This document shows positions 5,353 to 56,968 of a stretch of DNA of 62,928 nt, in pieces (position 1 is the stretch's first letter; each line of letters begins with the position of its first letter). The stretch comes from an uncultured virus (IMG/VR IMGVR_UViG_3300048004_000231) (lineage: Duplodnaviria > Heunggongvirae > Uroviricota > Caudoviricetes > Crassvirales), in IMG/VR virus record IMGVR_UViG_3300048004_000231, positions 1-62,928 of that record; one strand, 5' to 3'. The notes below the pieces were generated by a model. That model worked only from the letters and a program-made list of their open reading frames with translations. It made no database searches and had not been told where the DNA came from. The translations under genes and the position numbers were made by a program.

Positions 5353-6114
5353 TTACAGGTAATCAATTACTTGCTCGCTTGGAACGTTGTCTACTAGCTT
5401 ATCAATTGCTTCCTTTTTTATTTGCGAAACTCGCACATAACTTGCGATGCCATTAATTTCCAGTTTGTCTGCTATATCTTTAGCTGACATCTTATCACAG
5501 TCTAATCCATAACTTAATCGTATTACTTCATACTCTTTATCTGTTAGGTGTTCTTTCATTATACCTAATAGATACGCGTTAAGTAATGCAATATTGTACG
5601 GCTCAGAATTATCTGGTATTTGAAACATAGAATTTTCATCATCTACATTTGGATTGTTATCAATACTTAAAAATATCTGATTAAAGAACGTTTCAACTAT
5701 TAATCTATCCTTGCCAGAATTTTTTCTAATCTCATTTAATTTATGCTCTGGTATACGCATATCACCGCGATTAATATCTATTGATCTTCTCACAGCCCCT
5801 CGTATACGTTTGCCTAAAAACGATTTTAGTGTTAATTCTTGATCGTCACTTTGCGCAAGTGATTCCCAATCTATTCTATCAATAGCTGCAATTAAACCTA
5901 TGCTTCCTTCTTGTATTAAATCATTAATAGTAAGAACCCCTGACGCTTGCTGCGACGTGGCAAATCTTCTACTAATATTTTCTACAAGCGGTAAGAACAC
6001 AGTAATTAATTCCTGCCTACTATAGTCTTTAAAAGCTTTGTCTGGTATAACACTTAAACAAAAGTCTAAGTCCTCTTTATACCGAATGTAGTTTGTTACA
6101 TTATACTTTTTCAT
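5353..6114 (-). CDS. RNA polymerase sigma-70-family factor
   Basis: Region 2 LPLVENISRRF...DLIQEGSIGLIAAIDR; region 4 LTDKEYEVIRLSYGL...AKDIADKL...RVSQIKKEAIDKL. Confidence 0.9.
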   Translation of the reverse strand: MKKYNVTNYIRYKEDLDFCLSVIPDKAFKDYSRQELITVFLPLVENISRRFATSQQASGVLTINDLIQEGSIGLIAAIDRIDWESLAQSDDQELTLKSFLGKRIRGAVRRSIDINRGDMRIPEHKLNEIRKNSGKDRLIVETFFNQIFLSIDNNPNVDDENSMFQIPDNSEPYNIALLNAYLLGIMKEHLTDKEYEVIRLSYGLDCDKMSAKDIADKLEINGIASYVRVSQIKKEAIDKLVDNVPSEQVIDYL

Positions 6115-8039: not shown

Positions 8040-8248
8040 AATCCTGATTTTTGTAAGAAGTAATTATATACTTCTGGTATATGTTTTTTATAGTAAGGTT
8101 GTTCTGATGCAACCCATTTCTTTAAATTAGCTTTATTACCCCAATGCTTTTTACCATATTGCTTTAAAGTCCAATCAAAGATTTGTTCTATATCGTCAAT
8201 GAAGTCACCGACGGTCCAACCTTCCCATATGTGTTTATCTCTATTCAT
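8036..8248 (-). CDS. Hypothetical protein
   Basis: ORF with overlapping start/stop packing (HIWEGWTVGDFI). Confidence 0.7.
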   Translation of the reverse strand: MNRDKHIWEGWTVGDFIDDIEQIFDWTLKQYGKKHWGNKANLKKWVASEQPYYKKHIPEVYNYFLQKSGL

Positions 8249-8856
8249 TAGTGAAATATTAATCCTACTTTTTTGTTTTTACTAAACCATTTTGTTGCAA
8301 ATAAATCTACTTTGCTTGCATTTACAAACCCAGCGCGGTCTAGCTCTTGCTCTGATTTGAATATTTTAGTAAATCTATCCTGCTCATAATCAATCATATG
8401 CACTTGTTTACCTGCATTACTGAATATAATATCGTAGTTGCTAGGCAGATCGGTTTTGTGTACTAGATCAACCATATTAGTGTACGAATAAAACTTGACG
8501 TCGGGGTTGTGTATAGCAACCGTTATCCACTTTTTTAGATATGCGCCGGAATAATAATCACCGCTATCATGGACACGTACGTAATCGGGTTTCTTACGTT
8601 TTATTTCAGCATTCATTGCATCTACAAATCTGTCTGTTTTGCTTAGCTCATAGCGCTTTTCAAAAGCAGGTTTCACATTGCTCCAGATATATGCGCCTTT
8701 CTTAGCATAACAAAACTTTACACAGTCTTTAGCCATTGGGCATGTAAGTTTACCGCTGGCTGATTTGTATGCAGGTATACCGAAATTGAATACCCGTACG
8801 CCAAGTTGTTTACTCGTATTTTTTAGTTTACTGTTTTGCGTTAATAAATTCATCAC
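8248..8856 (-). CDS. GP88-like protein (Cys-triad, radical-SAM-like fold)
   Basis: NSKL...TCPMAKDCVKFCYA, RVHDSGDYY, FYSYT motifs. Confidence 0.7.
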   Translation of the reverse strand: MMNLLTQNSKLKNTSKQLGVRVFNFGIPAYKSASGKLTCPMAKDCVKFCYAKKGAYIWSNVKPAFEKRYELSKTDRFVDAMNAEIKRKKPDYVRVHDSGDYYSGAYLKKWITVAIHNPDVKFYSYTNMVDLVHKTDLPSNYDIIFSNAGKQVHMIDYEQDRFTKIFKSEQELDRAGFVNASKVDLFATKWFSKNKKVGLIFH

Positions 8857-17002: not shown

Positions 17003-18571
17003 ATGGAATTTAATAACCCAAGCCAGATAGTAAAAGATTTGTCGTTCGGCGACGCTGGCAAAGCAAAAGTAATGCATGGTGTAGAACAATTAACCAATGC
17101 AGTAAAATCAACATTAGGCGCTTCAGGTAAATGTGTTATCTATGAAGATGCTCTTGGAAAACCGGTGATAACAAAAGATGGTGTAACCGTTGCGGAAAGC
17201 GTAGTCTTACTTGACCCGGTTGAAAATATAGGAGCAACACTTATTAAAGAAGCGGCTAAAAACACAGTGAAAGAAGCAGGCGACGGTACCACCACGGCGA
17301 CCGTCCTTGCTCATTCGCTATTGTTAAAAGCAAACAAAGCTTTACAGGACAAAGATAATACAATAAGAGATATTAAGAATGGAATTCAATCAGCAAGTGA
17401 AAAAGTTATTCAATATCTTTCTAAACACGCCAAAACAGTACATAGCGATATGCTTGGCCAAGTTGCAACAATTAGCTGCAACAATGAAAAAGAATTAGGC
17501 GCAAAAATCGGTGCTGCTTTTTCAAAAGTTGGTAAAGATGGTGTAGTGCTGATGGAAGAGTCTGATACAAATGAAACTTACGTAGATTTTGTAGAAGGCG
17601 TACAATTAGAGACCGGGCTTATATCTAACTATCTTATTACAGACAAAGATAAACAGAGAGCTGTTTTAGACAACCCTTATGTGCTTATTATATCTTCGCC
17701 TATATCAAATATAAGGAAAATACAAGGTGTCTTAGAACACGTTATTAAGAAGAATAGGGCGTTGCTTATTGTATCCGATGTGGAACAGCAACCTAAAGCT
17801 GCATTAATTACAAATAAAGTAAAAGGCAATATTAAGGTAAATATAATCGACCCTCCGGGATTTGGTCCAACTAAGCAAGATACTATTGAAGATTTAGCTT
17901 TTTTAACTGGAGCAAAGATTATAAATGAAGAATTAGGTGATGATCTTGATATGATACAGCCTGATTGTTTAGGGGAAGCTATAAAGGCAATAACAGATGA
18001 TAAAACAACCGTATTGCAAATAGGCGATCTAGGCGATGCTTTTGACGAAAGAGTTAAAGGAATACAACTAAAGATTCAGAATGAATCTAACCCGTACTTT
18101 AAAAGACGACTAGAGCAACGGTTAGCTATGCTAAACGGCGCAGTCGGAATTGTAAAAGTCGGCGCGGATTCTAAGGTAGAGCTAAAAGAAAAGAAAGACC
18201 GTATTGAAGACGCTATTTATGCGACAAAAGCCGCTTATAAAGAGGGTATAGTCCCAGGCGGTGGTGTAGCACTATTAAATGCCTCTACGCTTATTACACC
18301 TAAAAATAAGGGCGAAGAGATATTGCTAGAAGCTATTAGAGCACCTTACGAAACTATTTTAGATAACGCGGGGCTTGACATAGTGTATCCTAACAAAAAG
18401 GGATGGGGTATTGATGTAGTTACAGGTAAAAATGTAAATATGACCAGGAGCGGCGTTATAGACCCTGTGCTTGTAACAAAGACTGCTTTAAAAAATGCCG
18501 TAAGTGTTGTTAACACTATTATTTCAGCTGATTGTATAATTAATAATATTCGAGCAAATGAAGGCAATTAA
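17003..18571 (+). CDS. groL: Chaperonin GroEL
   Basis: [37 protein letters not shown] motifs. Confidence 0.97.
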
Positions 18572-30097: not shown

Positions 30098-30293
30098 TAT
30101 TGGGAAAGACTATAAAAATGAAGCTATGCATTACTCCGTAGGCCAAGAGGTTTACGGGGGGCATACTATTTGCGATATAGTTGAGGAAGATAAAAAATAT
30201 AGTATTTATATTAAAAAAAATGACGAGGTATTGCCTTGGAAAGATTTTAATAAAAATATGGCAGTAGCGGTTGAATATAACTTAGAGTATTAA
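30075..30293 (+). CDS. Hypothetical protein
   Basis: 72-aa ORF packed upstream of second GroES-like gene. Confidence 0.75.
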   Translation: MKLIRKISIGKDYKNEAMHYSVGQEVYGGHTICDIVEEDKKYSIYIKKNDEVLPWKDFNKNMAVAVEYNLEY

Positions 30294-30898
30294 TGCGCAG
30301 TTTATTTCATTTTATAGTACAGCCAAAAAATGGCCGTAATAATAATAAAATAAATATTAATGATAAAGAGTTAATTGTTAATACAGAACTTCAAAACCAT
30401 GAGTATGTAAACCGTTTAGGGGTTGTTATAAATACACCTAAAAACGAAAAAACAGATATTAAAAAAGGAGATGAAGCTATTTTACATCATAATGTATTTA
30501 GAAGATTTTATGATGTTCGCGGAAAAGAAAAAAACAGCAAAAGCTATTTTAACGAAAAAACATATTTTGTAGATAGTACCCAAATATTTTTATATAAAAG
30601 AAATAAAAAATGGTACGCTCCTAAAAATTATTGTTTTATTAAGCCTATTAAATCAAATAATATTTTTAGTTCTAATAAAGAAAAACCTTTAATGGGTATT
30701 ATAAAATACTCAAATAAAATGTTAATTAAAAACGGCATTAAAGAAGGTTCTTTAGTGGGCTTTACGCCTAGAAGCGAGTATGAATTTTTGATTGAAGGTG
30801 AAAGATTATATAGAATAACAACAGATTCAATTGCAATTAAATATGAATACGAAGGAAACGAAGAGGAATATAATCCGAGCTGGGGAAAAAGCAGTTAA
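30293..30898 (+). CDS. GroES-like protein (apparently two tandem domains)
   Basis: FIVQP...GVVI..P...IKKGDEAI and FIKPI...GIIKY...IKEGSLVGF...EFLIEGERLYRI. Confidence 0.6.
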   Translation: MRSLFHFIVQPKNGRNNNKININDKELIVNTELQNHEYVNRLGVVINTPKNEKTDIKKGDEAILHHNVFRRFYDVRGKEKNSKSYFNEKTYFVDSTQIFLYKRNKKWYAPKNYCFIKPIKSNNIFSSNKEKPLMGIIKYSNKMLIKNGIKEGSLVGFTPRSEYEFLIEGERLYRITTDSIAIKYEYEGNEEEYNPSWGKSS

Positions 30899-31118
30899 AG
30901 AACTTATAAAAGTTGCAGAAGAAAAAATCATTACAAATACAGAAGATGATGTTTCTGCCGATAGACTTAAAAACGCGGCTGCTACAAAAAAGCTTGCAAT
31001 CTTTGATGCGTTTGAAATTCTTACTAGAATTGAAGTAGAGAAGGCGTTATTAGAAAACAAACCTCTAGTTGAAGAAAAAAAAGCGTTTAAAGGATTTGCT
31101 GAAAAAAGAAGTAAGTAA
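30843..31118 (+). CDS. Putative terminase small subunit
   Basis: Helical ~91-aa ORF directly upstream of terL (positional). Confidence 0.5.
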   Translation: MNTKETKRNIIRAGEKAVKELIKVAEEKIITNTEDDVSADRLKNAAATKKLAIFDAFEILTRIEVEKALLENKPLVEEKKAFKGFAEKRSK

Positions 31119-33325
31119 TGTATCAGCAAACATTATATAAGGTTATAGAGCCTATTAAAATAAACAAGCTAAAGCGATTTAACAAAGCTAAGCGATGGAA
31201 GTACGGTTATGACAAAGAAGAAGATATTGTTGTTATAAGTAAAACCGGCCAAATTGGAGATGTGTATAGCATACAAAATTTAAAAATAGCATTACCTCCA
31301 CCACCAAACAAATTAGATAAGAGCAGTAATAAATGGATCAAAGCGGAATATCCTAAAGAGCTTAATAAAATAAAAACTATATTTGATTGGAAAAATTACC
31401 CGCACGAATTTCAAGAAAAATGGGAACCATATATAGATGAAGAGTTTAAAAGACGGGAAGAGGGTTATTGGTTTTATAATAAAAATAAACCTACTTATAT
31501 TACTGGTACTCACTACATGTACTTGCAGTGGAGTAAGATTGATGTTGGGGCAGCAGACTTTAGGGAGTCAAATAGATTATTCTACATTTTCTGGGAAGCC
31601 TGTAAAGCAGACACAAGATCCTACGGTATGTGCTATCTTAAGAACAGACGATCAGGATTTTCATTCATGGCATCGGGCGAAACTGTTAACTTGGCAACAA
31701 TCAGTTCAGATTCAAGATTCGGTATCTTATCAAAATCGGGGAGTGATGCTAAAAAAATGTTTACCGACAAAGTAGTACCAATATCAATTAACTACCCTTT
31801 CTTTTTTAAACCGATACAAGACGGTATGGATCGTCCAAAAACAGAGCTAGCTTACAGAGTGCCAGCTTCAAAGCTAACACGTAAATCAATACAATCTGAG
31901 CAGCGAAGAGAAGAGCTTGAAGGACTTGATACAACTATAGACTGGAAAAATACAGGTGATAACAGTTATGACGGTGAAAAACTAAAGCTGTTAGTGCATG
32001 ATGAAAGCGGAAAATGGGAAAGACCTGACAACATATTAAATAACTGGAGAGTTACAAAAACCACATTAAGGCTAGGTAGTAGAGTTATCGGTAAATGTAT
32101 GATGGGCTCAACAAGTAATGCACTAGACAAAGGCGGTGAAAATTTTAAAAAATTATATGATGGATCAGACGTCACAAAGCGAAACCGCAATGGTCAGACT
32201 AAGTCAGGATTATATTCTTTGTTCATACCTATGGAATGGAATTACGAAGGATTCATTGATTCTTATGGACACCCTGTCTTTAATACGCCTACAGAACCTA
32301 CCGAGGGACCACACAGAGACATTATAGACGTCGGTGTAATTGAACACTGGGATAATGAGGTTGACGGATTAAAAGGCGACCAGGATAGCCTAAACGAATA
32401 TTACAGACAGTTCCCGCGCACAGAGGAACATGCGTTTCGCGACGAAGCAAAAAACAGTATATTTAATCTTGCAAGGATATATGAGCAAATTGATTATAAT
32501 GAAGAAGTCGCAACTAATGTAGTAACTAAAGGAAATTTTCAATGGGAGCGTGGCATTAAAGACTCTAAAGTTATTTTTTTACCGGATAATAATGGTAGAT
32601 TTAATATAAGCTGGGTACCGCCAATAGCTTTGCAAAATAGGTGCATAATAAAAAACGGAGTGCGCTATCCAGGTAATGAGCATATGGGCGCATTTGGGTG
32701 TGATAGTTACGATATATCAGGAACAACTGATGGGCAAGGTTCTAAAGGTGCTTTACACGGATTAACAAAGTTTAGTATGGAAGAGGCACCGGCTAATACA
32801 TTTTTTTTAGAATATGTTGCCCGACCGCAAACAGCAGAAACATTTTTTGAAGACGTTTTAATGTCATTAGTGTTTTATGGGATGCCATTACTTGCTGAAA
32901 ATAATAAGCCTAGATTACTATATTATTTAAAAAGAAGAGGTTATAGAGGTTACTCAATGAATAGGCCTGATAAAGTTTGGAATAAACTATCTATATCAGA
33001 AAAAGAAGTAGGAGGTATACCAAACTCATCCGAAGATATAAAGCAAGCTCACGCGGCGGCAATTGAAACTTATATTCAATCTTATGTAGGTAATAATCAA
33101 AATGGTATAAGCAATAATATATATTTTAACAGAACTTTGAATGATTGGGCAAAGTTTGATATAAATAAACGAACAAAGTTTGATGCGGCAATAAGCTCAG
33201 GTTTAGCAATAATGGCATGCAACAGACATTTGTATTCCCCAGTTGGAAAGAAAAACAAGGCTAAACTTAATTTAAGTTTTGCAAAATATAAAAACAGCGG
33301 TTTAAGATCGCAAATAATAGATTAA
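31118..33325 (+). CDS. terL: Terminase large subunit
   Basis: KNRRSGFS Walker A-like, LLVHDESGK Walker B, GSTSN, nuclease GCDSYD...FDAAISSG. Confidence 0.85.
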   Translation: MYQQTLYKVIEPIKINKLKRFNKAKRWKYGYDKEEDIVVISKTGQIGDVYSIQNLKIALPPPPNKLDKSSNKWIKAEYPKELNKIKTIFDWKNYPHEFQEKWEPYIDEEFKRREEGYWFYNKNKPTYITGTHYMYLQWSKIDVGAADFRESNRLFYIFWEACKADTRSYGMCYLKNRRSGFSFMASGETVNLATISSDSRFGILSKSGSDAKKMFTDKVVPISINYPFFFKPIQDGMDRPKTELAYRVPASKLTRKSIQSEQRREELEGLDTTIDWKNTGDNSYDGEKLKLLVHDESGKWERPDNILNNWRVTKTTLRLGSRVIGKCMMGSTSNALDKGGENFKKLYDGSDVTKRNRNGQTKSGLYSLFIPMEWNYEGFIDSYGHPVFNTPTEPTEGPHRDIIDVGVIEHWDNEVDGLKGDQDSLNEYYRQFPRTEEHAFRDEAKNSIFNLARIYEQIDYNEEVATNVVTKGNFQWERGIKDSKVIFLPDNNGRFNISWVPPIALQNRCIIKNGVRYPGNEHMGAFGCDSYDISGTTDGQGSKGALHGLTKFSMEEAPANTFFLEYVARPQTAETFFEDVLMSLVFYGMPLLAENNKPRLLYYLKRRGYRGYSMNRPDKVWNKLSISEKEVGGIPNSSEDIKQAHAAAIETYIQSYVGNNQNGISNNIYFNRTLNDWAKFDINKRTKFDAAISSGLAIMACNRHLYSPVGKKNKAKLNLSFAKYKNSGLRSQIID

Positions 33326-33326
33326 T

Positions 33327-35750
33327 ATGGCTGAGTCAGTTGTAAAAAGTTATTTTCCAAGTCAAGTCGCAAGCGATTTAGAAAAAATAAGCCCTGAGTA
33401 TGGGCTTAAGGTCGCTAAAGCTATTGAGCATGAATGGTTTAAAAGAGACTCGGGCACTACTCGTTTTTATAATAACCAAAATCAATATCATAAATTAAGA
33501 TTATATGCTAGAGGCGAGCAGCCTGTACAAAAATATAAAGATGAGTTATCAATAAACGGTGATTTATCATATCTTAATTTAGATTGGAAACCTGTACCTA
33601 TCATACCTAAGTTTGTAGATATTGTTGTTAATGGAATAGCAGAAAGAACTTATGATATAAAAGCTTATTCACAGGATCCTTACGGCGTAGAAAAAAGAAC
33701 AAAATATATGGAGTCAATTTTGCGAGATATGAAAACGCAAGATTTAAATACTTTTGTTCAAGAAAAGTTTGATATAAACTTATTTGAAAACGACCCGTCC
33801 ACTTTGCCAACATCGGAAGAAGAGCTATCTGTGCATATGCAGCTAACATATAAACAATCTATTGAACTTGCGGAAGAGCAAGCAATTAACACAGTTCTAG
33901 AGCAAAATAAATACGAATTAATTAAAAAACAGTTTTATTATGATTTAGCTGTTTTAGGTATTGGCGCAACAAAGACTACGTTTAATACGGCTGAAGGTGT
34001 TAAAATTGAATACGTTGACCCTGCAGATATTGTTTATTCATATACTGACTCGCCTTATTTTGATGACATATATTATATAGGTGAAATTAAAACAATACCT
34101 ATTAATGAATTAAAAAGACAATTTCCTAATCTTACTAATGAAGACTTAGAAGAAATTACAAAGCAAGGTGTGCAAAATACGGATTTTTATCATCGTACAT
34201 TAAATGAAACAAATAATGTAGATGCTAACTCAGTGCAGATTTTGTATTTTAATTATAAGACTTATATGAACGAAGTCTACAAAATTAAAAGCACTGCTAC
34301 AGGAGCTGAGAAAGCTTTATTAAAAAATGATCAATTTAATCCACCTAAAGACGATAGAACTAGGTTTGAAAAAGTATCAAGGTCATTAGAAGTATTATAT
34401 GAGGGTGCTTTAATATTAGGTACTAATAAACTTCTTAAATGGGAAATGGCACAAAATATGATGCGTCCTAAAAGCGATGTTACTAAAGTTAAAATGAATT
34501 ACGCTTTAGTAGCACCTAGAATGTATAAAGGAAAAGTTGAATCATTAGTAGGCCGTATTACTGGATTTGCTGATATGATTCAATTAACGCATTTAAAGCT
34601 ACAGCAAGTAATGTCTCGTATGGTGCCAGATGGAGTATATCTTGACGCCGATGGTATTGCGGAAATAGATTTAGGCAACGGAACTAATTACAATCCACAA
34701 GAAGCACTAAATATGTTTTTTCAAACAGGATCTGTTATTGGTCGATCGTTTACATCGGAAGGTGATATGAACCCCGGTAAAGTGCCTATACAAGAAATCA
34801 CAAGCGGTAGCGGTGGAAATAAATTAGGTGTATTAATTAATACATATAATTATTACTTGCAAATGATTCGTGATGTGACCGGATTAAATGAAGCAAGAGA
34901 TGGTAGCATGCCTGACAAAAATGCTTTAGTAGGTGTACAAAAATTAGCGGCTGCAAATTCAAACACTGCAACAAGGCATATATTACAAAGCGGATTATTT
35001 TTAACCGCTGAAACCGCCGAGGCTATTTCGATGCGTATCTCTGATATACTCGAGTACTCGCCAACAGCGGAAGCATTTATACAAAGTATTGGCGCTCATA
35101 ATGTAGCGACACTAAGTGAAGTTTCGCAATTACACTTGCGTGATTTTGGAATATTTTTAGAATTAACCCCTGACGAAGAAGAAAAGCAGTTGCTTGAAAA
35201 CAATATTCAGACGGCGTTATCAGCAGGGCTTATAGATTTAGACGATGCTATCGATATTAGAGAAATACGTAATATTAAGTTAGCAAATCAGCTTTTAAAA
35301 ATAAGACGCCAAAAGAAGCAAGAACGCGACCAGCAAATCCAACAGCAAAATATCCAAGCGCAAGCGCAGGCGAATGCACAAGCACAGCAAGTTGCGGCAC
35401 AGGCTGAAGTACAGAAAAGCCAGGCGCTAACAGCACAAAAAGCGGAGCTTGAACAAATTAAAGCTCAAATAGATAGTAATAAGCTAATGCAAGAAGCGCA
35501 GCTTAAAAAAGAATTAATGCAGCTAGAGTTCGAAATGAATATGCAACTTAAAGGAATTGAAGTTGACGGACAAAAACAAGCAATTAAAGAAAAGGAAGAT
35601 CGCAAAGATGATCGTACTAAATTACAAGCAACTCAACAAAGCGAGTTAATTAATCAAAGAAAAAATAATTTACCGCCTAAAGTATTCGAATCCTCGGGTA
35701 ATGATATACTTAGCGGTGATTTTGACTTAGGTTCCTTTGAACCCAAGTAA
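33327..35750 (+). CDS. Portal protein
   Basis: 807 aa after terL; PIIPKFVDIVVNG, IRDVTGLNEARDG, Q/A-rich barrel-like C-terminus. Confidence 0.8.
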   Translation: MAESVVKSYFPSQVASDLEKISPEYGLKVAKAIEHEWFKRDSGTTRFYNNQNQYHKLRLYARGEQPVQKYKDELSINGDLSYLNLDWKPVPIIPKFVDIVVNGIAERTYDIKAYSQDPYGVEKRTKYMESILRDMKTQDLNTFVQEKFDINLFENDPSTLPTSEEELSVHMQLTYKQSIELAEEQAINTVLEQNKYELIKKQFYYDLAVLGIGATKTTFNTAEGVKIEYVDPADIVYSYTDSPYFDDIYYIGEIKTIPINELKRQFPNLTNEDLEEITKQGVQNTDFYHRTLNETNNVDANSVQILYFNYKTYMNEVYKIKSTATGAEKALLKNDQFNPPKDDRTRFEKVSRSLEVLYEGALILGTNKLLKWEMAQNMMRPKSDVTKVKMNYALVAPRMYKGKVESLVGRITGFADMIQLTHLKLQQVMSRMVPDGVYLDADGIAEIDLGNGTNYNPQEALNMFFQTGSVIGRSFTSEGDMNPGKVPIQEITSGSGGNKLGVLINTYNYYLQMIRDVTGLNEARDGSMPDKNALVGVQKLAAANSNTATRHILQSGLFLTAETAEAISMRISDILEYSPTAEAFIQSIGAHNVATLSEVSQLHLRDFGIFLELTPDEEEKQLLENNIQTALSAGLIDLDDAIDIREIRNIKLANQLLKIRRQKKQERDQQIQQQNIQAQAQANAQAQQVAAQAEVQKSQALTAQKAELEQIKAQIDSNKLMQEAQLKKELMQLEFEMNMQLKGIEVDGQKQAIKEKEDRKDDRTKLQATQQSELINQRKNNLPPKVFESSGNDILSGDFDLGSFEPK

Positions 35751-35783: not shown

Positions 35784-37010
35784 ATGGAAAACCAAGAAGA
35801 ACAAAATATTGCTCAGGAACAAGAAAATGTTTCTCAAGAGCAAACAGCTGATCCAATAGTAGAGGCTAAAATAGTTGAGCCCACAATAGAAGAGGATCCA
35901 AATGTAGTAAAAGTTGATTTAAGAAAAATAAACGAAGATGCCGTTCAAGAACAAAGCACAGATGCAGGCGATGATACTGTCGAACAACCCGAAAACGCGG
36001 AAAGTAGCGAAGAAGTGGTTGAAGAAGTACGGGAGTCCGAACAAAGCGATGAGCCCTCTGCAAATGATGGGGCTGAAGAAACGGTATTAGAAGAAATTAC
36101 AGAAGAAGAAATTGTAGAAGAAGCGCAAGAATTAGCTGAAAATGTTGAAGAGGCTATTCAAGAGCAACAAGATTCTGGCATTGAACTTCCTGAAAATATT
36201 CAAAAAGTTGTGGACTTCATGAACGAAACCGGAGGCACACTTGAAGATTATGTAGCATTAAATAGAGACTACGCAAATGTGGACGACATGGCACTGCTAC
36301 GCGACTATTACCAAAAAAACAAACCGCATTTAACCGCGGATGAAATTGATTTTTTAATTGAAGATAATTTTTCATACGACGAAACTCTTGATGAAGAGCG
36401 GGATATTAAGCGTAAAAAATTAAATTTTAAAGAAGAGGTTGCACAAGCAAGGCAATCTTTAGAAGGATTAAAAAATGAATATTATAAAGAAATTAAAGCG
36501 GGCTCTAGATTAAACCCTGAGCAACAAAAAGCTGTAGAGTTTTTTAACCGCTATAATAAAGAGAATGAAGAAATCACAAAAGTTTCTGATCAACAAAAAT
36601 CTATATTTCAAAAGAAGACTAATGAAGTTTTCTCTGACTCATTCAAAGGTTTTGAATATAATGTTGGTGATAAAAAATATAGATTTAATGTAAAGCAGCC
36701 AAATGAAGTTAAAAATACTCAGTCTGATATTAATAATTTTGTTCAAAAGTTTTTGGACGAAAACAATAGTATGAAAGACGCTAAAGGTTATCATAAAGCT
36801 TTATTTACTGCAATGAATACAGACAAAATTGCTCAGCACTTTTATGAACAGGGTCGTGCAGATGCTTTAAAACAAAGTATTTCTAATGCTAAGAATGTAA
36901 AAATGAACCCAAGAGGGGTTCACGAAAAAGTTACATCTTCGTCTGGACTTACAGTAAAAGCTATATCTGGCGACAGCTCTTCAAGATTAAGAGTAAAACT
37001 AAGAAAATAA
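35784..37010 (+). CDS. Capsid scaffolding protein
   Basis: Very acidic N-half, between portal and capsid genes. Confidence 0.65.
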   Translation: MENQEEQNIAQEQENVSQEQTADPIVEAKIVEPTIEEDPNVVKVDLRKINEDAVQEQSTDAGDDTVEQPENAESSEEVVEEVRESEQSDEPSANDGAEETVLEEITEEEIVEEAQELAENVEEAIQEQQDSGIELPENIQKVVDFMNETGGTLEDYVALNRDYANVDDMALLRDYYQKNKPHLTADEIDFLIEDNFSYDETLDEERDIKRKKLNFKEEVAQARQSLEGLKNEYYKEIKAGSRLNPEQQKAVEFFNRYNKENEEITKVSDQQKSIFQKKTNEVFSDSFKGFEYNVGDKKYRFNVKQPNEVKNTQSDINNFVQKFLDENNSMKDAKGYHKALFTAMNTDKIAQHFYEQGRADALKQSISNAKNVKMNPRGVHEKVTSSSGLTVKAISGDSSSRLRVKLRK

Positions 37011-37028: not shown

Positions 37029-38471
37029 ATGAGTTTTCAAACAGGAGGAGCGTTCCCAGCGGGACTAACTCCATCACCAACAAAAACGTTGTTTGATAAG
37101 AATTATCTTTCTATCGGAGACAACGACTTTAACTTTACTAAGCAGTTTTTGCCAGAGGTATATGAAAAAGAAGTAGAGCGTTACGGAAATCGTTCTATCT
37201 CTTCTTTCTTGCGTATGGTAGGGGCTGAAATGCCTATGGCTTCTGACGAGGTTGTATGGACAGAGCAAGGGCGTTTGCATATTGCATATGACAATGCAGC
37301 ACTAGCTAGCACAACAGACGATACTGAAAAAACAATTAATATTACTGGGCACTCAATTCGTGCTAACCAAACAATTGTTGTTTCAAAAGGTACTGATTCT
37401 GTAAAAGCTTTTGTACAATCTGTATCAACAGACAGCATTGAAGCGTACCCTTTAACTTCTGCTACATGGCCTGCAAGCTTTGTTGCTGACCCGGCGCCAG
37501 CACTTAAAGTGTTTGTTTATGGTTCAGAATTTGGCAAAGGCTCAGCGGGAATGGCTGGATCAGTTGACGCTGGTTTCCAAAGATTCTCAAATAGCCCTAT
37601 TATCCTAAAAGATAAGTATTCTATTAATGGTTCTGATACTGCTCAAATTGGGTGGGTAGAAGTAACTACTGAAATGGGTACATCTGGATACTTATGGTAT
37701 TTAAAATCTGAGCACGAAACACGTTTGCGTTTTGAAGATTATCTTGAAATGTCAATGGTTGAAGCTGAAAAAGCAACTGAAACTATTAATATTCTTGATA
37801 ACTCTGGTGCAGATTCTGGCGCTAATGTAAGAGGTACCGAAGGTCTTTTCTCGGCTATTGAAAGCAGAGGTCTTGTATTCCAAGATCACGACTTTGATAA
37901 TACCAGCGGACTTTCAGGTTTAGGAGAATTTGATGAAATTCTTAAAGAGCTTGATAAGCAAGGTGCTATTGAAGAAAATATGCTTTTTGTAGGTCGTGGT
38001 ACATCTTTAGCTTTAGATAATATGCTAGCACGCGCTAATTCTTACGGAAGCGGCGGTACATCTTATGGCGTATTTGAAAACAGCGAAGATATGGCGCTTA
38101 ACTTAGGATTTTCAGGATTCCGTAGAGGTTCTTACGATTTCTACAAAACTGACTGGAAATATCTAAACGATGCCGCTACTCGTGGCCTTACTGATGACAT
38201 TGACGGTGTACTTGTACCTGCTGGTGTATCAACAGTATATGATCAAACACTAGGTAAAAATATCCAACGTCCATTCTTACACGTTCGCTACAGAGCTTCT
38301 GAAGCTGATGATCGTAGAATGAAATCTTGGATTACTGGATCTGTAGGAGGAAACTTCACGTCTGATATTGACGAAATGAATGTTCACTTCCTATCTGAAA
38401 GAGCGCTATGTGTACAAGGGGCAAACAACTTTATCTTATTTGAAGATACGGCTGCTGCTGGTGGAGCATAG
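37029..38471 (+). CDS. Major capsid protein
   Basis: 480 aa after scaffold, high-expression codon usage, followed by strong terminator. Confidence 0.78.
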   Translation: MSFQTGGAFPAGLTPSPTKTLFDKNYLSIGDNDFNFTKQFLPEVYEKEVERYGNRSISSFLRMVGAEMPMASDEVVWTEQGRLHIAYDNAALASTTDDTEKTINITGHSIRANQTIVVSKGTDSVKAFVQSVSTDSIEAYPLTSATWPASFVADPAPALKVFVYGSEFGKGSAGMAGSVDAGFQRFSNSPIILKDKYSINGSDTAQIGWVEVTTEMGTSGYLWYLKSEHETRLRFEDYLEMSMVEAEKATETINILDNSGADSGANVRGTEGLFSAIESRGLVFQDHDFDNTSGLSGLGEFDEILKELDKQGAIEENMLFVGRGTSLALDNMLARANSYGSGGTSYGVFENSEDMALNLGFSGFRRGSYDFYKTDWKYLNDAATRGLTDDIDGVLVPAGVSTVYDQTLGKNIQRPFLHVRYRASEADDRRMKSWITGSVGGNFTSDIDEMNVHFLSERALCVQGANNFILFEDTAAAGGA

Positions 38472-50545: not shown

Positions 50546-53500
50546 ATGTTTGAATTAAACGGTAAGCAGTACTCTTTAACGCAAGTTGAAGCGGCTGCGG
50601 CAAAATCTAATAAAACATTGGATGAATATATCCAAGGAGCTGGCTTAATTACTTTAGAGCCGGGAAAGACAACTCCCACGGGTCAGGGTGCGCCTGTGGA
50701 GGAAACTGCAGCACCCGAAAACAATATGGTTTCCACTTCGGAAGCTGGTTCTTCGGTATCAGAAGAAATTGAGCTTACCAATATACAGTCTATAAAAAAT
50801 TCATTTTCAAATATGCTCGAGCAAACCGGGGATATTATAGAATTTTGGGGCGCTGACAAAGGGCAAGGTTCAGCTTTAGATATAGCCACTAATACAATCG
50901 CGGCAGGAATTTTCGGACAAAATAAAGTAGATGAATTTGCTGCGAATACATCAGATTACATGAGTGGAGGATTAGGTTCTGAAGAAACTATAAAAGCTAT
51001 TAAAGAATATGAAAAAGAATTAGCCCAAACAAAAAGAACCAAAGGTATTATTGAAAGCGCTAAAGAAGGTAATGTCGGAGGTATGGCGGCTGGGGTAATT
51101 AATGCAGTTACTAATGCATTAGGATCTGTAGCATATACGGTTGGAACTTTAGGCACTGGTAATATTTTGAATTATATAGCTAATAATTATGTAGAATTTA
51201 ATAAATTAAAAGCTAAAAATTTAGGAATATCATCAGAAGAACTTATTAAACAAGATAAAGCTGATGAAGCCGCACCCATTGCTATGGGATTTTTAAGCGG
51301 TTTATTAGAGAATATAGGTAGTAAAGCCATAGTACAAGGAGTAGTTAAAGGAACTACGGGCATGGCGACATTGGGCAAGCTTAATAAAAATCTTGCTCAA
51401 AAAATGTTTTATAATAAAACAGCAAGAAGAACCGCTAATATAATAGCCACTGGATCTTTGGAGGCTGTTACGGAAATATTACAGCATGCGTCCGATGCAG
51501 TTAATATAGAATTAGGTAGTGTAGCGGGTACTGATGAAAGCGCCGAGGTAATGTCTTCTTTCTTTGACGCTGTAACAAGCGAAGAAGGCTTAGAAGCGGG
51601 ATTACAAGGATTTTTAGGAGGCAGCGGTTTGTCAACAGGATCTTATTCTGCAAAAGCTTTAAATTCAGTAAGAGAAACCACCAACTTAAAAGAAATTGAT
51701 GGGCTTATACAAAAGTTATATAAGCTTAGAAAAAATTATACAGGCATTACAGACCCTACATCTAAAAAAGGGATAGAACAAAATATTAATACTGTAGAAC
51801 AAAAACTTTCAGATTTAATTGATAAAGGCAATTTAATATATGAATCTTTATCAGATGAGCAAATATCAAAAATAGAAAGCCTAAAAGACTTAGCCAATAC
51901 TGCTGCTAATGAAATAACTGAACTAAATAAAAAATTTAGGCTAGGCATTATTAGCAAAAACGAATATGCCGCTGCATTTGAAGGTTTTAAATTACAATAC
52001 GAACAATCCAGAAATGAGCTAGTAAATTTAAAGTTAGAAGAAAACATATCTACTGTTCAACAAGAAGCGTCACAGAGAGGCACAACAGTTGAAGCGTTTG
52101 AAACAGCCGAAGAATATGCCCAGGCATATAAAGCTTTAACGGGAAAAGATGTAGTAAACTCAAACGGTGTGTTTATTGGTAAAGGCAAAATACTTATTAA
52201 TAAACAATTGGCTAGAGAAACCTTTTCTGTAAATGTAGCAAAACACGAATTTTTACATAATATATTAAATGCTGTTGTTGGAAATCAGGGTAAACAACGT
52301 AATGCAGTTAAAAAAATGCAGCGCGCGATGACCACTACCCAAAGGCGCGAAGTGAATAAAGTTTTAAAAAGAAAACGTATAAAAGCTAATTCTTCTGAAT
52401 ATTATACAGAATATATGAATGTGTTTTCTGATTTATTAGCTACTGATAGAGTAGGTTTTGAAAAAACTGTTTTTGAAAAAATTGGTGGTGCAATAACCGG
52501 TATATTTAAACCATTAGGTTTTGATAATATGAATTTTGCAAATGGGCAAAGCGCATATAACTTTATTAAATCTTATAGCGCAGCAAAAGGTCCTGAATTT
52601 AGTAATATTGTTGAAACTGTAGTAGGCGATATTAATTTAGGTGAGGTTAAAGCTTTTGCAGGGTCTCAGTTTGATGCAAACTTACAAGGTCAAGTACAAA
52701 GGCTTGGACAAGTTGAGCTTAGCCCTGAAGATGTTGCGGGTATAAGTGAAGAACAAATTGCTCGTCTCAAAGATGAAAAATGGAAAAAAAGCGGCGCGGA
52801 TACTGCAATAGCAGAATTATATGCCAGTGGTTTATTAGCCAGATTAATTGGAAGTAAAATTACTTCTGAAGATAGAAAGCTTCCAAATTTTAATGAAGAC
52901 GATTTTATAATGGGTTCTATTGAGGAAATTATTCCTCATATACGGAACTTTAAGCCCGGCCAAAACGACAACTTATCTGGTTGGATAAATTCTCAATTAG
53001 CAAATAAGATTAAACAAGCTAAGAAAACAGGTAAAGTTGGTACTAAACAAAAATTTGAAGAAAGCCTATCTTCTATAACAGAAGAAGGCCAAGAAAGATT
53101 TCAGGTTGCTTCAGATTATTTAGATAGCCAATCTTTAATTGAAATACGTCAGGAAGAAGAAGCCTTACAAAAAGCAAAAATAAATCCTTTAAGCGCATTT
53201 TTTAATGAAGAGGAAGCTGCTGATTATTATTCTAGAACTGTTACGGCTATAAATGAAATGTCTGAAGAAGAGTTTAATAGCTTAACTTTTGCTAGCATGC
53301 CCGATATGGTGCCTGAAATTACAGCTAGGTTATTTGGCATGAAACTTAATGCTTATTTAGGCCTTAATAAAGAAGGCAAACCTACCTCCGCGAATTTTTC
53401 AGGAGATAAAACAAAAGCTCAAAAATTTATATATGCCAATGCTGATACCTTAATTAGACTGTTACCTAACGGGGCTATATTAGAAGGGGATACCGCTAAA

Positions 53501-56500
53501 GAAAGTTTAATAAATACAGGTCTTCAAATACCTAGAAAAATACAACAAGCTTTTTATGAAAAACAAGGCCGCGTAAGTTTAGGAGCAGGCTTAGCCCCCT
53601 TTCAATTAAAAGACAATATAACTAAAAAAGATTTTTTAGCTACATTTGGTATTTCTACTGATGGCAAATTTGCTGTATTAAAAAATGGTGAAGCAAGAGC
53701 AATATCAATGATCGCAATGGCTCGCCTTGTTGGCAGACTTTTAAGCAATACTTCGGTTAGGGCTGCTGTAGATTTAACGCTAGAGCAGGCTCAAGATATT
53801 AAAGCAGGTATTAGTGTTGGGCAATTTGATGCTATTGAGCAAGATGCTGTTAATGATTTAAGAGTTTTTGATGTTTCAATGAACTTAATTGAAAATTTTG
53901 ATCAGCTTTTAAATTCAAATAAAATTAAAAACTTATTAGAAGATCAAGGGGTAGACGTTTCTAAGCTTGATACTACAAATATATTGCTTGTTAATAAACC
54001 CAAAGGCAAAGGGCAAGAATTAGATTTAGACAAAGGTAAGAGCTTCTTTCAAAATATAAGAGAATTAACTAAAGGTTTAGATAGAGATATTGCAAAAAAC
54101 AAAACTTTATTACGCGCTATTTATGGTAATTGGCGTGATACTTTTTTAGGGTTCCCGTTAGATAAAAGTGATTATAAATACCTTATTAAAAATAATAAAA
54201 AATTATCTTTTGAAAATGCCGAAGATTTAAAATTAATTAATGATTTTTTAAATGAAGCATCTGCGGGAACAAGAGATCAGGTTTTTACAGAAGAGCAAGC
54301 TGTGTGGGTTAGCGACTATACTAAAGAACTTATAAAACAATATAAAAAATCTTTAGCAAAAAATAAGCCTAAAGGTAATAGTAATACTCCAAATTCCGCA
54401 AGTAAAATTAGAACGCGTAAAAACCGACTAATGGATAAAAACGTTGAGCAAGACGCCCAAAATGCGTGGAACGATTTATCCGAACATAATGAAACTAATA
54501 ATTTATTAGCTAAAGTACTAATAAGCACATATAAAGACTACTATCATAATGGGCCCGGTACAAAAACAGAAAAATTAAAGTCAATAATAATTAGCTTAGT
54601 TTCTAACCGAAACTCCGTAAACGGATTCAGGTCTTTATCAAATGTTGTTGGAGTTGTATGGAGCCCCGATAAAGTTGCTCAATACCATATGGAGCACACT
54701 GAGTCGATAGCATCTGTAGTTAAAGACATTTTATTACAAATTATTTTACCTATAGGCAGTGAAATTAAATTTAACTCCACATCTGTTTTAATACCTAAAG
54801 AATTAGCTAATTTAAGAGACGGCAATAAAGAAACTAAATTTAGTGCATCGGCATTTAAAAAAATATTGTCAAAATTTGTTAATGATTCCGATAATGATTA
54901 TGAATATTTAGGCGAAAATGGGCAATTTGACAAAGCAGAAGAATTAGGTGAAATGATTGGCCGGACATCTGATATTAGTAGTAAATCTGAAATATCAGAA
55001 AAGAAAGCTAATTTGTTAGGTAAAAACAAAGGTAAATGGAAATTCTTTATACCACCTTCCGCAGATGATCTTATGGGACTTATGTACTATATGGTTGGTA
55101 AAGGAAAACAAGGGGATAAAGATTTAGCTTGGATAAAGAAAAATATAAGCGACCCGTTTGCTAAGGGAATAAATCAATTTACCGCGCATAGACAAATGGT
55201 TATGTCACAGTTTAAAGATTTTAAAAAGCAATTGCGTAAACAAAATATTAAACTAAAAGAAGTAAACAGCACTGGTTTTACAAATGAAGTAGCTGTTAGG
55301 GTTTATATATGGACTAAGCGCGGCATGCAATTACCCGAAGGTGATTTAACGAAGTCAGAAGTTGCAGAACTTATAAAGGTAGTTAAAGAAAATAGCGGGT
55401 TAGAAGATTTTGCAAAACAAGTAATGAACTTAACTACTTTTGCTGAATTGCCGTCTATTGAAAAGAACTGGGATAAAGGATCTATTACAACTGATATTTT
55501 AGATTATTTAAATACATCTTCAAGAGATAAATTTTTAGAAGAGTACGCTGCCAATATAGAAGAAATATTTGGTAAGTTTGGTCAAGATGGTAAACTTTCC
55601 GGCCCAACAGCCAATAGACTGAGAGCAGCTTATGGCGATAATTATTTAGAAGCGTTAAGCGATGTTCTTTATAGAATGAAAACAGGTAGGGCAAGACCAG
55701 CAGGGTCAAATAGATTAACTAATCAATTTGTAAACTGGATTAATGACTCAGTAGGTGCCATTATGTTCTTTAACACAAGATCGGCATTATTACAGCAGCT
55801 TTCTTTTGTTAACTTTATTAACTTTAGTGACAACAATCCGTTAAAAGCTGGAGCAGCATTTGCAAATCAAAAACAATTTTGGAGCGACTATGCCATGCTA
55901 TTTAACTCTGACTTTTTAAAAGAAAGACGTTCAGGGCTGAAAACGGATGTTAACGCAGATGAAATTGCTAAAGCCGCAGAAGAAGGCAGAAATCCTATAC
56001 GGTCTGTTATTGCTTCAATACTTAAGAAAGGATTTTTACCAACACAAATGGCGGATTCACACGCAATAGCTATGGGCGGGGCTTCTTTTTATAGAAACCG
56101 TTTAAATAGATATTTAAGTGAAGGCATGGAGCAGCAACAAGCTGAACAGCAAGCATTTTTAGATTTTCAAGAAGCCGCGGAAGAATCTCAGCAGTCATCA
56201 AGACCTGATCGTATATCACAGCAGCAGGCAAGTCCATTAGGGCGCCTTATATTAGCTTTTGCCAACACGCCTATGCAATATGCTCGCTTAACTAAAAAGG
56301 CAGCTTTAGATTTAATTAACGGCCGAGGGGATTGGAAAACAAACCTTAGTAAATTAATGTATTACGGAGCTGTTCAAAATATAGTGTTCTCTGCTATGCA
56401 AACTGCTTTATTCGCAATGATGTTTGATGACGAGGAAGAGGATAAAGAAAGAGACAGATATTTTAGAATTGCAAATAGTTCAGCTGATGGTTTATTAAGA

Positions 56501-56968
56501 GGTTTAGGATTTGGTGGTGCCGCAGTAGCTACTATTAAAAATATGATACTTGAAGCTATTAATCAAACTAATAAAGCAAGGCCTAATTATGAAAGGGTAG
56601 CTATTAAAGCTTTAACGTTATCGCCGCCTATAGATTCTAAAATACGTAAATTAATGTCTGCTGGTAGAACATTTACTTATAGAAATACAAGAGAAAAAAT
56701 GGCTAAAGAGGGATTTAGTTTAGATAATCCAGCCTTTGAGGCATTAGGTCAGGTTGTATCAGCGACAACTAATTTACCTATGGATCGCGTAATTAGAAAA
56801 ATGGATAACTTGTCTACACCAATTAGACAAGATGTTGAGGCTTGGCAAGCTATATCATTAGCACTTGGTTATTCTAAATGGGATGTTGGTTTAATTGAAA
56901 CGCAAACGAAAAAATCTAAAGGTAAAGTTATATCGAAAAGCACTAAGAAAAAAACAATTAAAAAATAA
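50546..56968 (+). CDS. Giant multidomain (polyvalent) internal virion protein: zincin protease, sigma-70 region-2-like module, possible nuclease module, helical C-terminus
   Basis: HEFLH at aa 567-571; sigma r2-like aa 784-825; QFD at aa 708, 1093, 1460. Confidence 0.7.
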   Translation: MFELNGKQYSLTQVEAAAAKSNKTLDEYIQGAGLITLEPGKTTPTGQGAPVEETAAPENNMVSTSEAGSSVSEEIELTNIQSIKNSFSNMLEQTGDIIEFWGADKGQGSALDIATNTIAAGIFGQNKVDEFAANTSDYMSGGLGSEETIKAIKEYEKELAQTKRTKGIIESAKEGNVGGMAAGVINAVTNALGSVAYTVGTLGTGNILNYIANNYVEFNKLKAKNLGISSEELIKQDKADEAAPIAMGFLSGLLENIGSKAIVQGVVKGTTGMATLGKLNKNLAQKMFYNKTARRTANIIATGSLEAVTEILQHASDAVNIELGSVAGTDESAEVMSSFFDAVTSEEGLEAGLQGFLGGSGLSTGSYSAKALNSVRETTNLKEIDGLIQKLYKLRKNYTGITDPTSKKGIEQNINTVEQKLSDLIDKGNLIYESLSDEQISKIESLKDLANTAANEITELNKKFRLGIISKNEYAAAFEGFKLQYEQSRNELVNLKLEENISTVQQEASQRGTTVEAFETAEEYAQAYKALTGKDVVNSNGVFIGKGKILINKQLARETFSVNVAKHEFLHNILNAVVGNQGKQRNAVKKMQRAMTTTQRREVNKVLKRKRIKANSSEYYTEYMNVFSDLLATDRVGFEKTVFEKIGGAITGIFKPLGFDNMNFANGQSAYNFIKSYSAAKGPEFSNIVETVVGDINLGEVKAFAGSQFDANLQGQVQRLGQVELSPEDVAGISEEQIARLKDEKWKKSGADTAIAELYASGLLARLIGSKITSEDRKLPNFNEDDFIMGSIEEIIPHIRNFKPGQNDNLSGWINSQLANKIKQAKKTGKVGTKQKFEESLSSITEEGQERFQVASDYLDSQSLIEIRQEEEALQKAKINPLSAFFNEEEAADYYSRTVTAINEMSEEEFNSLTFASMPDMVPEITARLFGMKLNAYLGLNKEGKPTSANFSGDKTKAQKFIYANADTLIRLLPNGAILEGDTAKESLINTGLQIPRKIQQAFYEKQGRVSLGAGLAPFQLKDNITKKDFLATFGISTDGKFAVLKNGEARAISMIAMARLVGRLLSNTSVRAAVDLTLEQAQDIKAGISVGQFDAIEQDAVNDLRVFDVSMNLIENFDQLLNSNKIKNLLEDQGVDVSKLDTTNILLVNKPKGKGQELDLDKGKSFFQNIRELTKGLDRDIAKNKTLLRAIYGNWRDTFLGFPLDKSDYKYLIKNNKKLSFENAEDLKLINDFLNEASAGTRDQVFTEEQAVWVSDYTKELIKQYKKSLAKNKPKGNSNTPNSASKIRTRKNRLMDKNVEQDAQNAWNDLSEHNETNNLLAKVLISTYKDYYHNGPGTKTEKLKSIIISLVSNRNSVNGFRSLSNVVGVVWSPDKVAQYHMEHTESIASVVKDILLQIILPIGSEIKFNSTSVLIPKELANLRDGNKETKFSASAFKKILSKFVNDSDNDYEYLGENGQFDKAEELGEMIGRTSDISSKSEISEKKANLLGKNKGKWKFFIPPSADDLMGLMYYMVGKGKQGDKDLAWIKKNISDPFAKGINQFTAHRQMVMSQFKDFKKQLRKQNIKLKEVNSTGFTNEVAVRVYIWTKRGMQLPEGDLTKSEVAELIKVVKENSGLEDFAKQVMNLTTFAELPSIEKNWDKGSITTDILDYLNTSSRDKFLEEYAANIEEIFGKFGQDGKLSGPTANRLRAAYGDNYLEALSDVLYRMKTGRARPAGSNRLTNQFVNWINDSVGAIMFFNTRSALLQQLSFVNFINFSDNNPLKAGAAFANQKQFWSDYAMLFNSDFLKERRSGLKTDVNADEIAKAAEEGRNPIRSVIASILKKGFLPTQMADSHAIAMGGASFYRNRLNRYLSEGMEQQQAEQQAFLDFQEAAEESQQSSRPDRISQQQASPLGRLILAFANTPMQYARLTKKAALDLINGRGDWKTNLSKLMYYGAVQNIVFSAMQTALFAMMFDDEEEDKERDRYFRIANSSADGLLRGLGFGGAAVATIKNMILEAINQTNKARPNYERVAIKALTLSPPIDSKIRKLMSAGRTFTYRNTREKMAKEGFSLDNPAFEALGQVVSATTNLPMDRVIRKMDNLSTPIRQDVEAWQAISLALGYSKWDVGLIETQTKKSKGKVISKSTKKKTIKK
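50662..50716 (+). promoter_or_regulatory. -1 programmed ribosomal frameshift signal (slippery heptamer + H-type pseudoknot)
   Basis: In-phase G GGA AAG, 7-nt spacer, stem1 CCACGGGT/GCCTGTGG, stem2 GGGTGC/GCACCC. Confidence 0.72.

Follow-up and report, generated by a model that had tools for sequence, protein, structure and literature searches.

The window, the 62,928-bp record of an uncultured Crassvirales phage (IMGVR_UViG_3300048004_000231), is complete and carries direct terminal repeats. Its largest gene (positions 50546-56968, plus strand) encodes a protein of 2140 amino acids (aa), P0001, in which a zincin-like metallopeptidase motif is followed by three copies of the tripeptide Gln-Phe-Asp (QFD). 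Our results indicate that these copies are conserved signals at the junctions between the modules of P0001, and not products of chance. Among the explanations weighed, the likeliest, at a probability of about 45%, is that the protein is cut at the three motifs by its own built-in zincin; the cleavage, the protease responsible, the scissile bond and the timing are all features that we infer from sequence and predicted structure.

According to the model proposed here, P0001 would be a giant virion protein of the phage 'polyvalent' type, made of a chain of four units: first a conserved N-terminal module whose end is a gluzincin-like peptidase domain with HEFLH and E622, then two cargo modules that vary between lineages, and last a strongly conserved C-terminal module of 680 aa. 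Disordered linkers would join these units, each with a motif that would act as a recognition and cleavage site for the zincin of the same chain; in P0001 this motif is x-Q-F-D, and most of the family has [IVL]-[QK]-F-S-K. Cutting the 237-kDa chain at all three sites, whether within the capsid or once the protein has been ejected into the host, would release pieces of about 76, 42, 42 and 76 kDa.

Junction motifs of P0001

QFD occurs in P0001 only at aa 708 (FAGSQFDAN, nucleotide (nt) 52667), 1093 (ISVGQFDAI, nt 53822) and 1460 (GENGQFDKA, nt 54923). The translation thus confirms the three positions given in the original prediction, as well as the spacings of 385 and 367 aa and the span of 52244-54931 from the peptidase motif to the third site. 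The regularity that was read into these spacings is incidental, the distances between motifs ranging from 58 to several hundred aa in homologues.

From the composition of P0001, 0.23 copies of QFD are expected and three are observed. When the protein was shuffled 20,000 times, at least three QFD appeared in 0.135% of the shuffles and three [GS]QFD in none. The whole proteome (55 open reading frames (ORFs), 18,274 aa) contains four QFD, three of them in P0001 and one in the other 16,134 aa, and the tripeptide is absent from the portal, from the major-capsid-like protein (MCP) and from a 408-aa ORF encoded between the two. The three sites use different codons and have dissimilar DNA flanks, and therefore selection acts on the peptide. 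Taken alone, the count is weak evidence, because 96 other tripeptides are present at least three times in P0001, a caveat that applies to any motif chosen after the fact; the case is carried by the comparative evidence. That abundance of triplets favours a reading in which the three QFD are functionless and owe their presence to chance, the protein being long. The shuffles, the presence of Q-x-S/D at the aligned place in 28-31 of 33 homologues and the coincidence of the motifs with module borders and linkers already contradict this explanation, to which we assign a practically negligible probability.

In a MAFFT alignment of the 33 closest proteins, Q-x-[S/D] stands at the aligned place of site 1 in 28 proteins, of site 2 in 31 and of site 3 in 30, mostly at most four columns off, with two site-2 cases lying 23 columns away. 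QFD is present at all sites in P0001-P0010, and this clade is the only one with Asp at every site; a second clade carries LQFS, LQLS or IQFS, and a third Q-[K/E/R]-S. Within a protein, the choice between Ser and Asp agrees in 79 of 81 site pairs, and the residue after Gln is of the same class (hydrophobic or polar) in 69 of 81, levels of agreement that none of 5000 column shuffles reached. These shuffles ignore relatedness, and the pattern should therefore be taken as about two independent concerted switches and not as 33 observations. In addition, where site 3 of a relative is widened by an insert of about 85 aa, a copy of the motif flanks the insert on either side. Whether homologues have their own repeated motif at the same junctions, a check suggested with the original prediction, is thus answered in the affirmative, and the lineage variants change together at all sites.

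Across the wider family, the C-terminal module is preceded by a junction that reads ..DVKSKVQQAK[VI][QK]FSK; the consensus is F-S, and no junction residue is better conserved than the serine. The pattern [IVL]QFSK[TSN] is found in 2-5 copies in many proteins (for instance, 4-5 copies of IQFSK[TSN]) where about 0.3 would be expected, and among the frequent tripeptides upstream of the C-terminal module none is more over-represented than FSK (166 copies versus 56.7 expected, in 81 of 117 cluster representatives). These comparisons establish the K/Q-F-S linker in the family and add to it the QFD variant, with its concerted switch from Ser to Asp.

The conservation of this serine favours a mechanism that needs no protease, in which the bond between Phe and Ser would be broken by a serine N-O acyl shift, in the way that Nup98 cleaves itself between the Phe and Ser of His-Phe-Ser. 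We find such self-cleavage very improbable, because aspartate cannot act as the nucleophile and the whole clade of P0001 has replaced serine by aspartate at all sites. Moreover, the motifs lie in disordered linkers and not in a fold that could strain the bond.

The location of the motifs was further examined by comparing P0001, by BLASTP, with the best 120 of the 187 matches for aa 500-1600. The N-terminal part (aa 40-700) is conserved, its zincin region (aa 540-680) being common to about 100 of the 120 homologues; the middle (aa 720-1460) is variable and common to about 33-58 of them; and the C-terminal part (aa 1461-2120) is common to 117, at 40-66% identity. Alignment ends cluster at aa 678-718, 1088-1094 and 1460-1467, the places of the three QFD sites. 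When aa 500-1500 were modelled with AlphaFold from a 42-row alignment (mean predicted local distance difference test (pLDDT) of 75), Q708 fell inside a segment of pLDDT below 50 (aa 680-710), Q1093 in a coil between two helices, followed by residues of pLDDT below 50, and Q1460 in a coil past the last strand of module B, among blocks of pLDDT 53-64. Predicted linkers and BLASTP module borders therefore agree in placing the motifs at domain junctions, as had been claimed from the sequence, and none of the three falls inside a folded domain of the predicted structure, all being in linkers or coils of low confidence.

Along the chain, the N-terminal conserved module (aa 1-489; 50546-52012, plus strand, as for all features of this gene) was delimited by BLASTP coverage and conserved N-termini. 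It comprises a small conserved N-terminal domain, a Gly-rich region and long helices, and is conserved in roughly a third to a half of the 120 homologues compared. The zincin-like domain (aa 490-680; 52013-52585), assigned from AlphaFold, from the invariant His/Glu/His/Glu residues and from one BFVD match, leads into a disordered linker (aa 680-710; 52583-52675) that was defined by pLDDT below 50 at model residues 181-211 together with the alignment ends, and which finishes in junction motif 1, S-Q708-F-D. Variable modules A (aa 711-1092; 52676-53821) and B (aa 1096-1459; 53831-54922), both drawn from BLASTP and AlphaFold, are separated by junction motif 2, G-Q1093-F-D (53822-53830), which is preceded by a conserved A-G-x-S and was placed by the second cluster of alignment ends and by the coil at model residues 588-597. 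Junction motif 3, G-Q1460-F-D (54923-54931), is homologous to the family-wide [QK]-F-S-K before the C-terminal module. The latter (aa 1463-2140; 54932-56965) is the most conserved part of the family and has a basic, Lys-rich tail.

As to the content of the variable modules, many relatives (P0035-P0121 and others) have a HAD-phosphatase-like module (DFDDTLA ... TARP ... FADD) directly upstream of ..DVKSKVQQAKxxFSK, while a Zeta_toxin/AAA_33 kinase (in P0104) and an LPD14 match were each found in one of 17 relatives. In module A of P0001, a stretch at about aa 740-830 (window 52760-53035; DDFI..IPHIRNF.P....LSGWINSQL) recalls sigma region 2 by eye. Pfam Sigma70_r2 does not match P0001, and hhalign of the family profile gave a probability of 0.1% both against a sigma-like ORF of the same phage and against E. 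coli RpoD. Foldseek returned weak rows to models of sigma with RNA polymerase for the 1001-residue model of aa 500-1500 (for example 9a4r_A, probability 0.66); no match of this model to the PDB reached E <= 0.001, because too many domains were combined in one query.

The zincin-like domain and its possible link to the motifs

HEFLH (aa 567-571; 52244-52258) is the sole HxxxH of P0001. H567, E568, H571 and E622 (52409-52411) are invariant in alignments of 42 and of 17 sequences, and the two His and the Glu of HExxH are at least 90% conserved in an alignment of 38 sequences. An AlphaFold model of aa 490-700 (mean pLDDT 86.2, predicted template modelling score 0.74) consists of one helix and then three strands, followed by the HExxH helix and, further on, a helix that carries E622. 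In the numbering of the model, strands 25-29, 52-56 and 59-63, all of pLDDT above 90, come before the active-site helix (75-89), which contains HEFLH, and E622 lies in helix 128-143, 51 residues past H571. E622 was proposed at the outset as third ligand of the zinc; being invariant and located on this downstream helix, it keeps its place as the candidate.

Searches with this model gave a less uniform picture. Foldseek found no match in the PDB at E <= 0.001, the best having E 0.39 and a TM score of 0.31; six of the top 10 rows were HExxH peptidases, including PPEP-3, collagenase T and lethal factor, at non-significant E values of 0.39-1.0 and TM scores of 0.31-0.39. Among the predicted viral structures of BFVD, the best matches were parts of other giant phage proteins (E 5.3e-05 and 1e-03), a 'structural protein' of the Flavobacterium phage elemo also matched (E 2.2e-03), and lower rows were labelled MuF C-terminal, lethal factor, polyvalent and crAss-like. 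Pfam gave nothing on P0001 at E <= 1 save two chance rows, with no peptidase model among them. A search of PDB sequences with the family profile returned only coiled-coil rows of coronavirus spike, which we judged spurious. The predicted complex of aa 500-684 with a 46-aa peptide of site 2 and zinc, computed without controls, scored 0.01 against a mark of 0.32, a value that speaks neither for nor against an interaction. On the basis of its motif and predicted topology, and not of proven homology, the domain is therefore best described as zincin-like: the invariant residues and the topology support the zincin domain that had been read from the sequence, and neither a solved zincin nor a Pfam peptidase model was matched significantly.

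A link between the domain and the motifs was sought in the family as a whole. Among 234 full-length members, [QK][FLYMW][SD] at the junction before the C-terminal module is found in 0 of the 8 proteins without a zincin and in 123 of the 226 with one (Fisher p = 0.002). Junction type also goes with zincin subtype (111:7 versus 11:10, p = 7e-6). When zincin and junction motif were first cross-tabulated under loose definitions, no significant association emerged (p = 0.23 and 0.44), and the definitions behind the two later p values, which are uncorrected for phylogeny, were refined after seeing the data. Read with these limits, the associations are suggestive of the protein's own zincin, in preference to a separate protease, as the enzyme that would act on the sites. 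A self-processing polyprotein would be recognized by a short motif that is repeated in the linkers between its domains and varies together with the protease; this pattern is present, the co-variation being uncorrected for phylogeny.

Alternatively, the motifs might be cut by a different protease, either a diverged head-maturation protease of the phage or a protease of the host; the staphylococcal phage 80alpha uses the host protease Prp for such cutting. The capsid protein family of the window is common to all five related complete phage records compared (55-72% identity), which would allow an enzyme of the head to co-evolve with the sites. Among the ORFs of the structural block, several have no family match, including the 408-aa ORF at 35784-37010, and the zincin may have another job, such as the peptidoglycan digestion put forward in accounts of comparable proteins. 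However, our protease survey, which covered all 55 ORFs of at least 80 aa (Pfam 48, PHROGs 21, both 14), found no prohead-protease family in any of them, the M15 cell-wall peptidase family being the only peptidase family besides the zincin-like domain of P0001. A head protease usually also trims proteins such as the portal and MCP, and QFD is not enriched in the other virion proteins, as the proteome counts above indicate. Furthermore, members that have no zincin have no junction motif either, and junction type tracks zincin subtype. An external protease is a rather unlikely author of any cuts.

It might also be that the motifs are not cut at all. They could be short linear motifs for docking to the portal or the capsid interior, they could serve as a hinge or unfolding signal while the chain passes through the tail, or they could be a joint maintained by the exchange of 'module plus linker' units. 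In line with this notion, the C-terminal module is fused in one giant ORF, 65 of them with HExxH, in 71 of 71 loci with enough upstream sequence, and no split gene was found among them. In phage N4, the virion RNA polymerase gp50, a protein with a domain of the MPTase (zincin-like metallopeptidase) type, reportedly enters the particle unprocessed (PMC5512222, in its passage on N4), and the description of the crAss001 particle in PMC10172136 includes an uncut cargo protein that spans tail and capsid. Modules are, besides, clearly swapped between relatives. Nevertheless, the three sites share no DNA repeat and use different codons, and therefore they are not recombination scars. That one lineage changed Ser to Asp at all of its sites in concert suggests that one reader co-evolves with the motif, although this reader could be a non-catalytic binding partner, and the motif is lost when the zincin is lost. 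An uncut motif is thus a serious possibility, though not a probable one.

Returning to self-processing by the built-in zincin, a number of observations weigh against it, in addition to the commonness of repeated triplets, the absence of significant peptidase matches, the undivided giant ORFs and the reportedly unprocessed gp50 of N4, all described above. A disordered stretch of 45 residues with pLDDT below 50 (aa 831-875; window 53036-53170) lies within module A and has no motif; module A may consist of two domains joined by an uncut linker. The strict motif is missing from the C-terminal junction of 103 of the 226 zincin-bearing members, many of which have variants such as L-A-S-K, and the associations between protease and motif may reflect mere shared ancestry. 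The three QFD sites escape a position matrix that was trained on junctions from distant homologues (scores of -0.2 or less, below chance matches), and the link of QFD to the family motif rests for this reason on alignment position and not on similarity. The looser pattern [QK]F[SD] is in modest excess, with 2.60 copies per protein versus 1.90 after shuffling in the 234 proteins, and 2.68 versus 1.79 in the 71 ORFs from viral contigs. Finally, peptidoglycan digestion, and not self-processing, is the role proposed by the authors of the work on gp47 of the Stx phage phi24B (bioRxiv 10.64898/2026.04.10.717836), and the same digestion is proposed for such domains in 10.1101/2020.03.07.982082, as far as the relevant parts of these two reports go.

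A large family and its relation to known systems

P0001 has no convincing PHROG match (one was marginal), phmmer against the PDB returned nothing real, and tblastn, run against 50,697 phage records, matched neither the whole protein nor the C-terminal module. In metagenomic protein collections, on the other hand, the C-terminal 680 aa match 2468 cluster representatives at E <= 0.001, of which 1532 remain at E <= 1e-30. These matches lie almost always at the C-terminus of proteins of 2000-3400 aa, with alignments that begin at most 20 residues past site 3, and the module is encoded on at least 590 viral contigs. These similarities place P0001 in a very large unnamed family of giant phage proteins; its members are common among uncultured relatives of Flavobacterium and Cellulophaga podophages with genomes of about 60-70 kb.

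One apparent stand-alone copy of the C-terminal module, P0159 (785 aa), was rejected. It starts with M-A-S-K-I-L-D, residues that recur identically inside P0163, and its 90% cluster includes a member of 2730 aa; it is probably a truncated gene call and was therefore not counted as a natural split. A subgroup of the family with L/M-A-S-K at the junction (P0128, P0139, P0155, P0157, P0162 and others) has a different zincin subtype, HE[YGAV]xH, and many of its members carry a second HE[KE]xH near the extreme C-terminus, past the C-terminal module.

We tentatively propose, at odds short of even, that this family of very large virion proteins of double-stranded DNA (dsDNA) phages, with more than 2400 clusters, could be a self-contained polyprotein system. 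A zinc peptidase and a site code of Gln/Lys-Phe-Ser (here Gln-Phe-Asp) would co-evolve within one gene, cargo would be gained and lost as 'module plus site', and once the chain is packaged, or as it enters the cell, it would be split into separate effectors. Few genes of tailed phages are as large and as poorly understood as those of giant 'polyvalent' proteins, which are thought to carry several activities into the host together with the DNA. The location of the junction motif in linkers and at module borders, its concerted change and its loss with the zincin make the idea of self-processing testable, with predicted pieces of the sizes given above. The motif likewise provides a practical rule by which giant phage proteins that lack annotation, of which there are thousands, can be divided into modules, and the answer would apply widely, this family being abundant in uncultured phages.

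The closest precedent is the work of Iyer, Burroughs, Anand, de Souza and Aravind in 2017 (PMC5512222), which predicted that the MPTase of polyvalent proteins cuts the chain into functional units. The zincin-like layout of MPTase described there matches the model of the P0001 domain. As in those polyvalent proteins, P0001 is giant and multi-domain, is encoded among late or virion genes and has a putative HExxH-plus-Glu zincin with a predicted three-stranded sheet, and its relatives contain unrelated, swappable modules (HAD-like, Zeta/AAA_33 kinase, LPD14). Matches in the ESM Atlas to the zincin part were labelled LPD23, LPD1, ART-PolyVal and MuF_C, and others LPD38 or LPD39; these labels serve as leads only. 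Unlike the catalogued polyvalent proteins, P0001 matches no Pfam LPD or MPTase model, and among its relatives LPD14 is found in 1 of 17 only. It also differs from the proteins of the 2017 study in having exact candidate cut sites and in a C-terminal module that defines a large unnamed family. By its architecture, P0001 fits the phage-type polyvalent class. The main-text passages of the 2017 paper, supplements aside, define no cleavage motif, and the three QFD sites, if our reading is true, would supply residue-exact cut points for a prediction that has so far had no defined sites in those passages.

Three phage systems allow a closer comparison. The gp47 protein of phi24B (2811 aa) contains LPD5, LPD1, LPD38 and a MuF-C metallopeptidase and was detected in the virion by mass spectrometry (bioRxiv 10.64898/2026.04.10.717836). 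Like this proposed packaged ejection protein, P0001 is a giant product of the last gene of its block in a short-tailed phage and has an internal HExxH, to the extent that gp47 is described in the parts of that report concerned. The HExxH regions of gp47 and of the P0001 family are weakly similar at most (hhalign E 0.014, probability 3%), and no similarity was found elsewhere in the two. In phage N4, gp50 is a giant ejected protein whose C1 domain includes HExxH, according to the section on this protein in PMC13434306. As with gp50, the gene of P0001 ends a block of portal, MCP and ejection protein; unlike gp50, P0001 has no RNA polymerase signature, and the phage has a sigma-like factor of its own. 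An hhalign comparison of the family profile with aa 2100-3500 of gp50 found nothing (probability 0.2%).

The crAss-like phage phi14:2 has a zincin in gp65 and an RNA polymerase in gp66, next to gp67, and in some phages these are fused into a polyprotein that was considered 'likely cleaved' (10.1101/2020.03.07.982082, in its part on these proteins). P0001 resembles this RNA polymerase block, as far as it is described there, in joining a zincin-bearing virion protein to other cargo and in the weakly muzzle-like protein encoded upstream. No D[FY]DxD was found in any ORF of the window, and P0001 has neither an RNA polymerase family in Pfam nor a PDB sequence match to gp66. By analogy with N4, the crAss-like phages and phi24B gp47, and from the position of its gene, we infer that P0001 is packaged in the virion and enters the host.

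Polyproteins with a built-in protease and a short site code containing Gln are familiar from RNA viruses, the 3C protease of picornaviruses and the main protease of coronaviruses being examples. P0001, as proposed here, would share with them a single chain, an internal protease, sites in linkers, an invariant Gln and lineage-specific residues next to it. In contrast to those systems, its protease would be a metallopeptidase and not a chymotrypsin-like cysteine protease, the chain is a putative virion protein of a dsDNA phage, and its cleavage is putative.

Genome neighbourhood

The gene of P0001 is the final one of the structural block. Upstream of it lie the genes for the large terminase (TerL; 31118-33325), the portal (33327-35750), the 408-aa ORF without a family match (35784-37010, between portal and MCP) and the MCP (37029-38471), followed by a 1449-aa protein with a weak match, under the Pfam cut-off, to the C-terminal domain of the crAss muzzle (PF25729). 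The gene order parallels that of N4, whose virion RNA polymerase occupies the same end position as P0001. The nearest relative of TerL is found in the uncultured podovirus MW202828.1 (62.5% identity), after which come the Flavobacterium 'elemo' phages (45%) and then phages of Cellulophaga, Tenacibaculum and Maribacter.

At the syntenic place, MW202828.1 has a gene for a 3859-aa protein (L002 741-12320, minus strand) that is annotated as 'reticulocyte binding/rhoptry protein' and contains two HEFGH motifs. We rejected it as a homologue of P0001, to which it is unrelated by BLASTP, and no obvious repeated junction tripeptide was seen in it. Because an unrelated giant gene stands there, the giant gene of the window can be regarded as a swappable cassette, and the zincin theme recurs at this place.

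Pfam Sigma70_r2, searched over the six frames of the record, matches a single ORF (5353-6114, minus strand, 253 aa), in which sigma-70 regions 2 and 4 are both barely above the Pfam cut-offs; the P0001 gene is unmatched. From these sequence matches, the phage appears to redirect the RNA polymerase of its host instead of bringing its own.

Two further regions of the record deserve mention. A strong GP88 match (PF17338, E 1.3e-37) is found in the ORF at 8248-8856 (minus strand), and a giant protein labelled 'Gene product 88 domain-containing' is among the weak structural neighbours of the zincin model. The record also encodes a GroEL-like chaperonin (17003-18571, plus strand; phrog_5725, E 1.7e-131) and a GroES/Cpn10-like protein of 201 aa (30293-30898, plus strand; phrog_13932, E 8.7e-25); a Cpn10 match in Pfam (E 3.1e-05) came from a batch of ORFs that excluded 30293-30898. 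This phage chaperonin may help to fold very large virion proteins.

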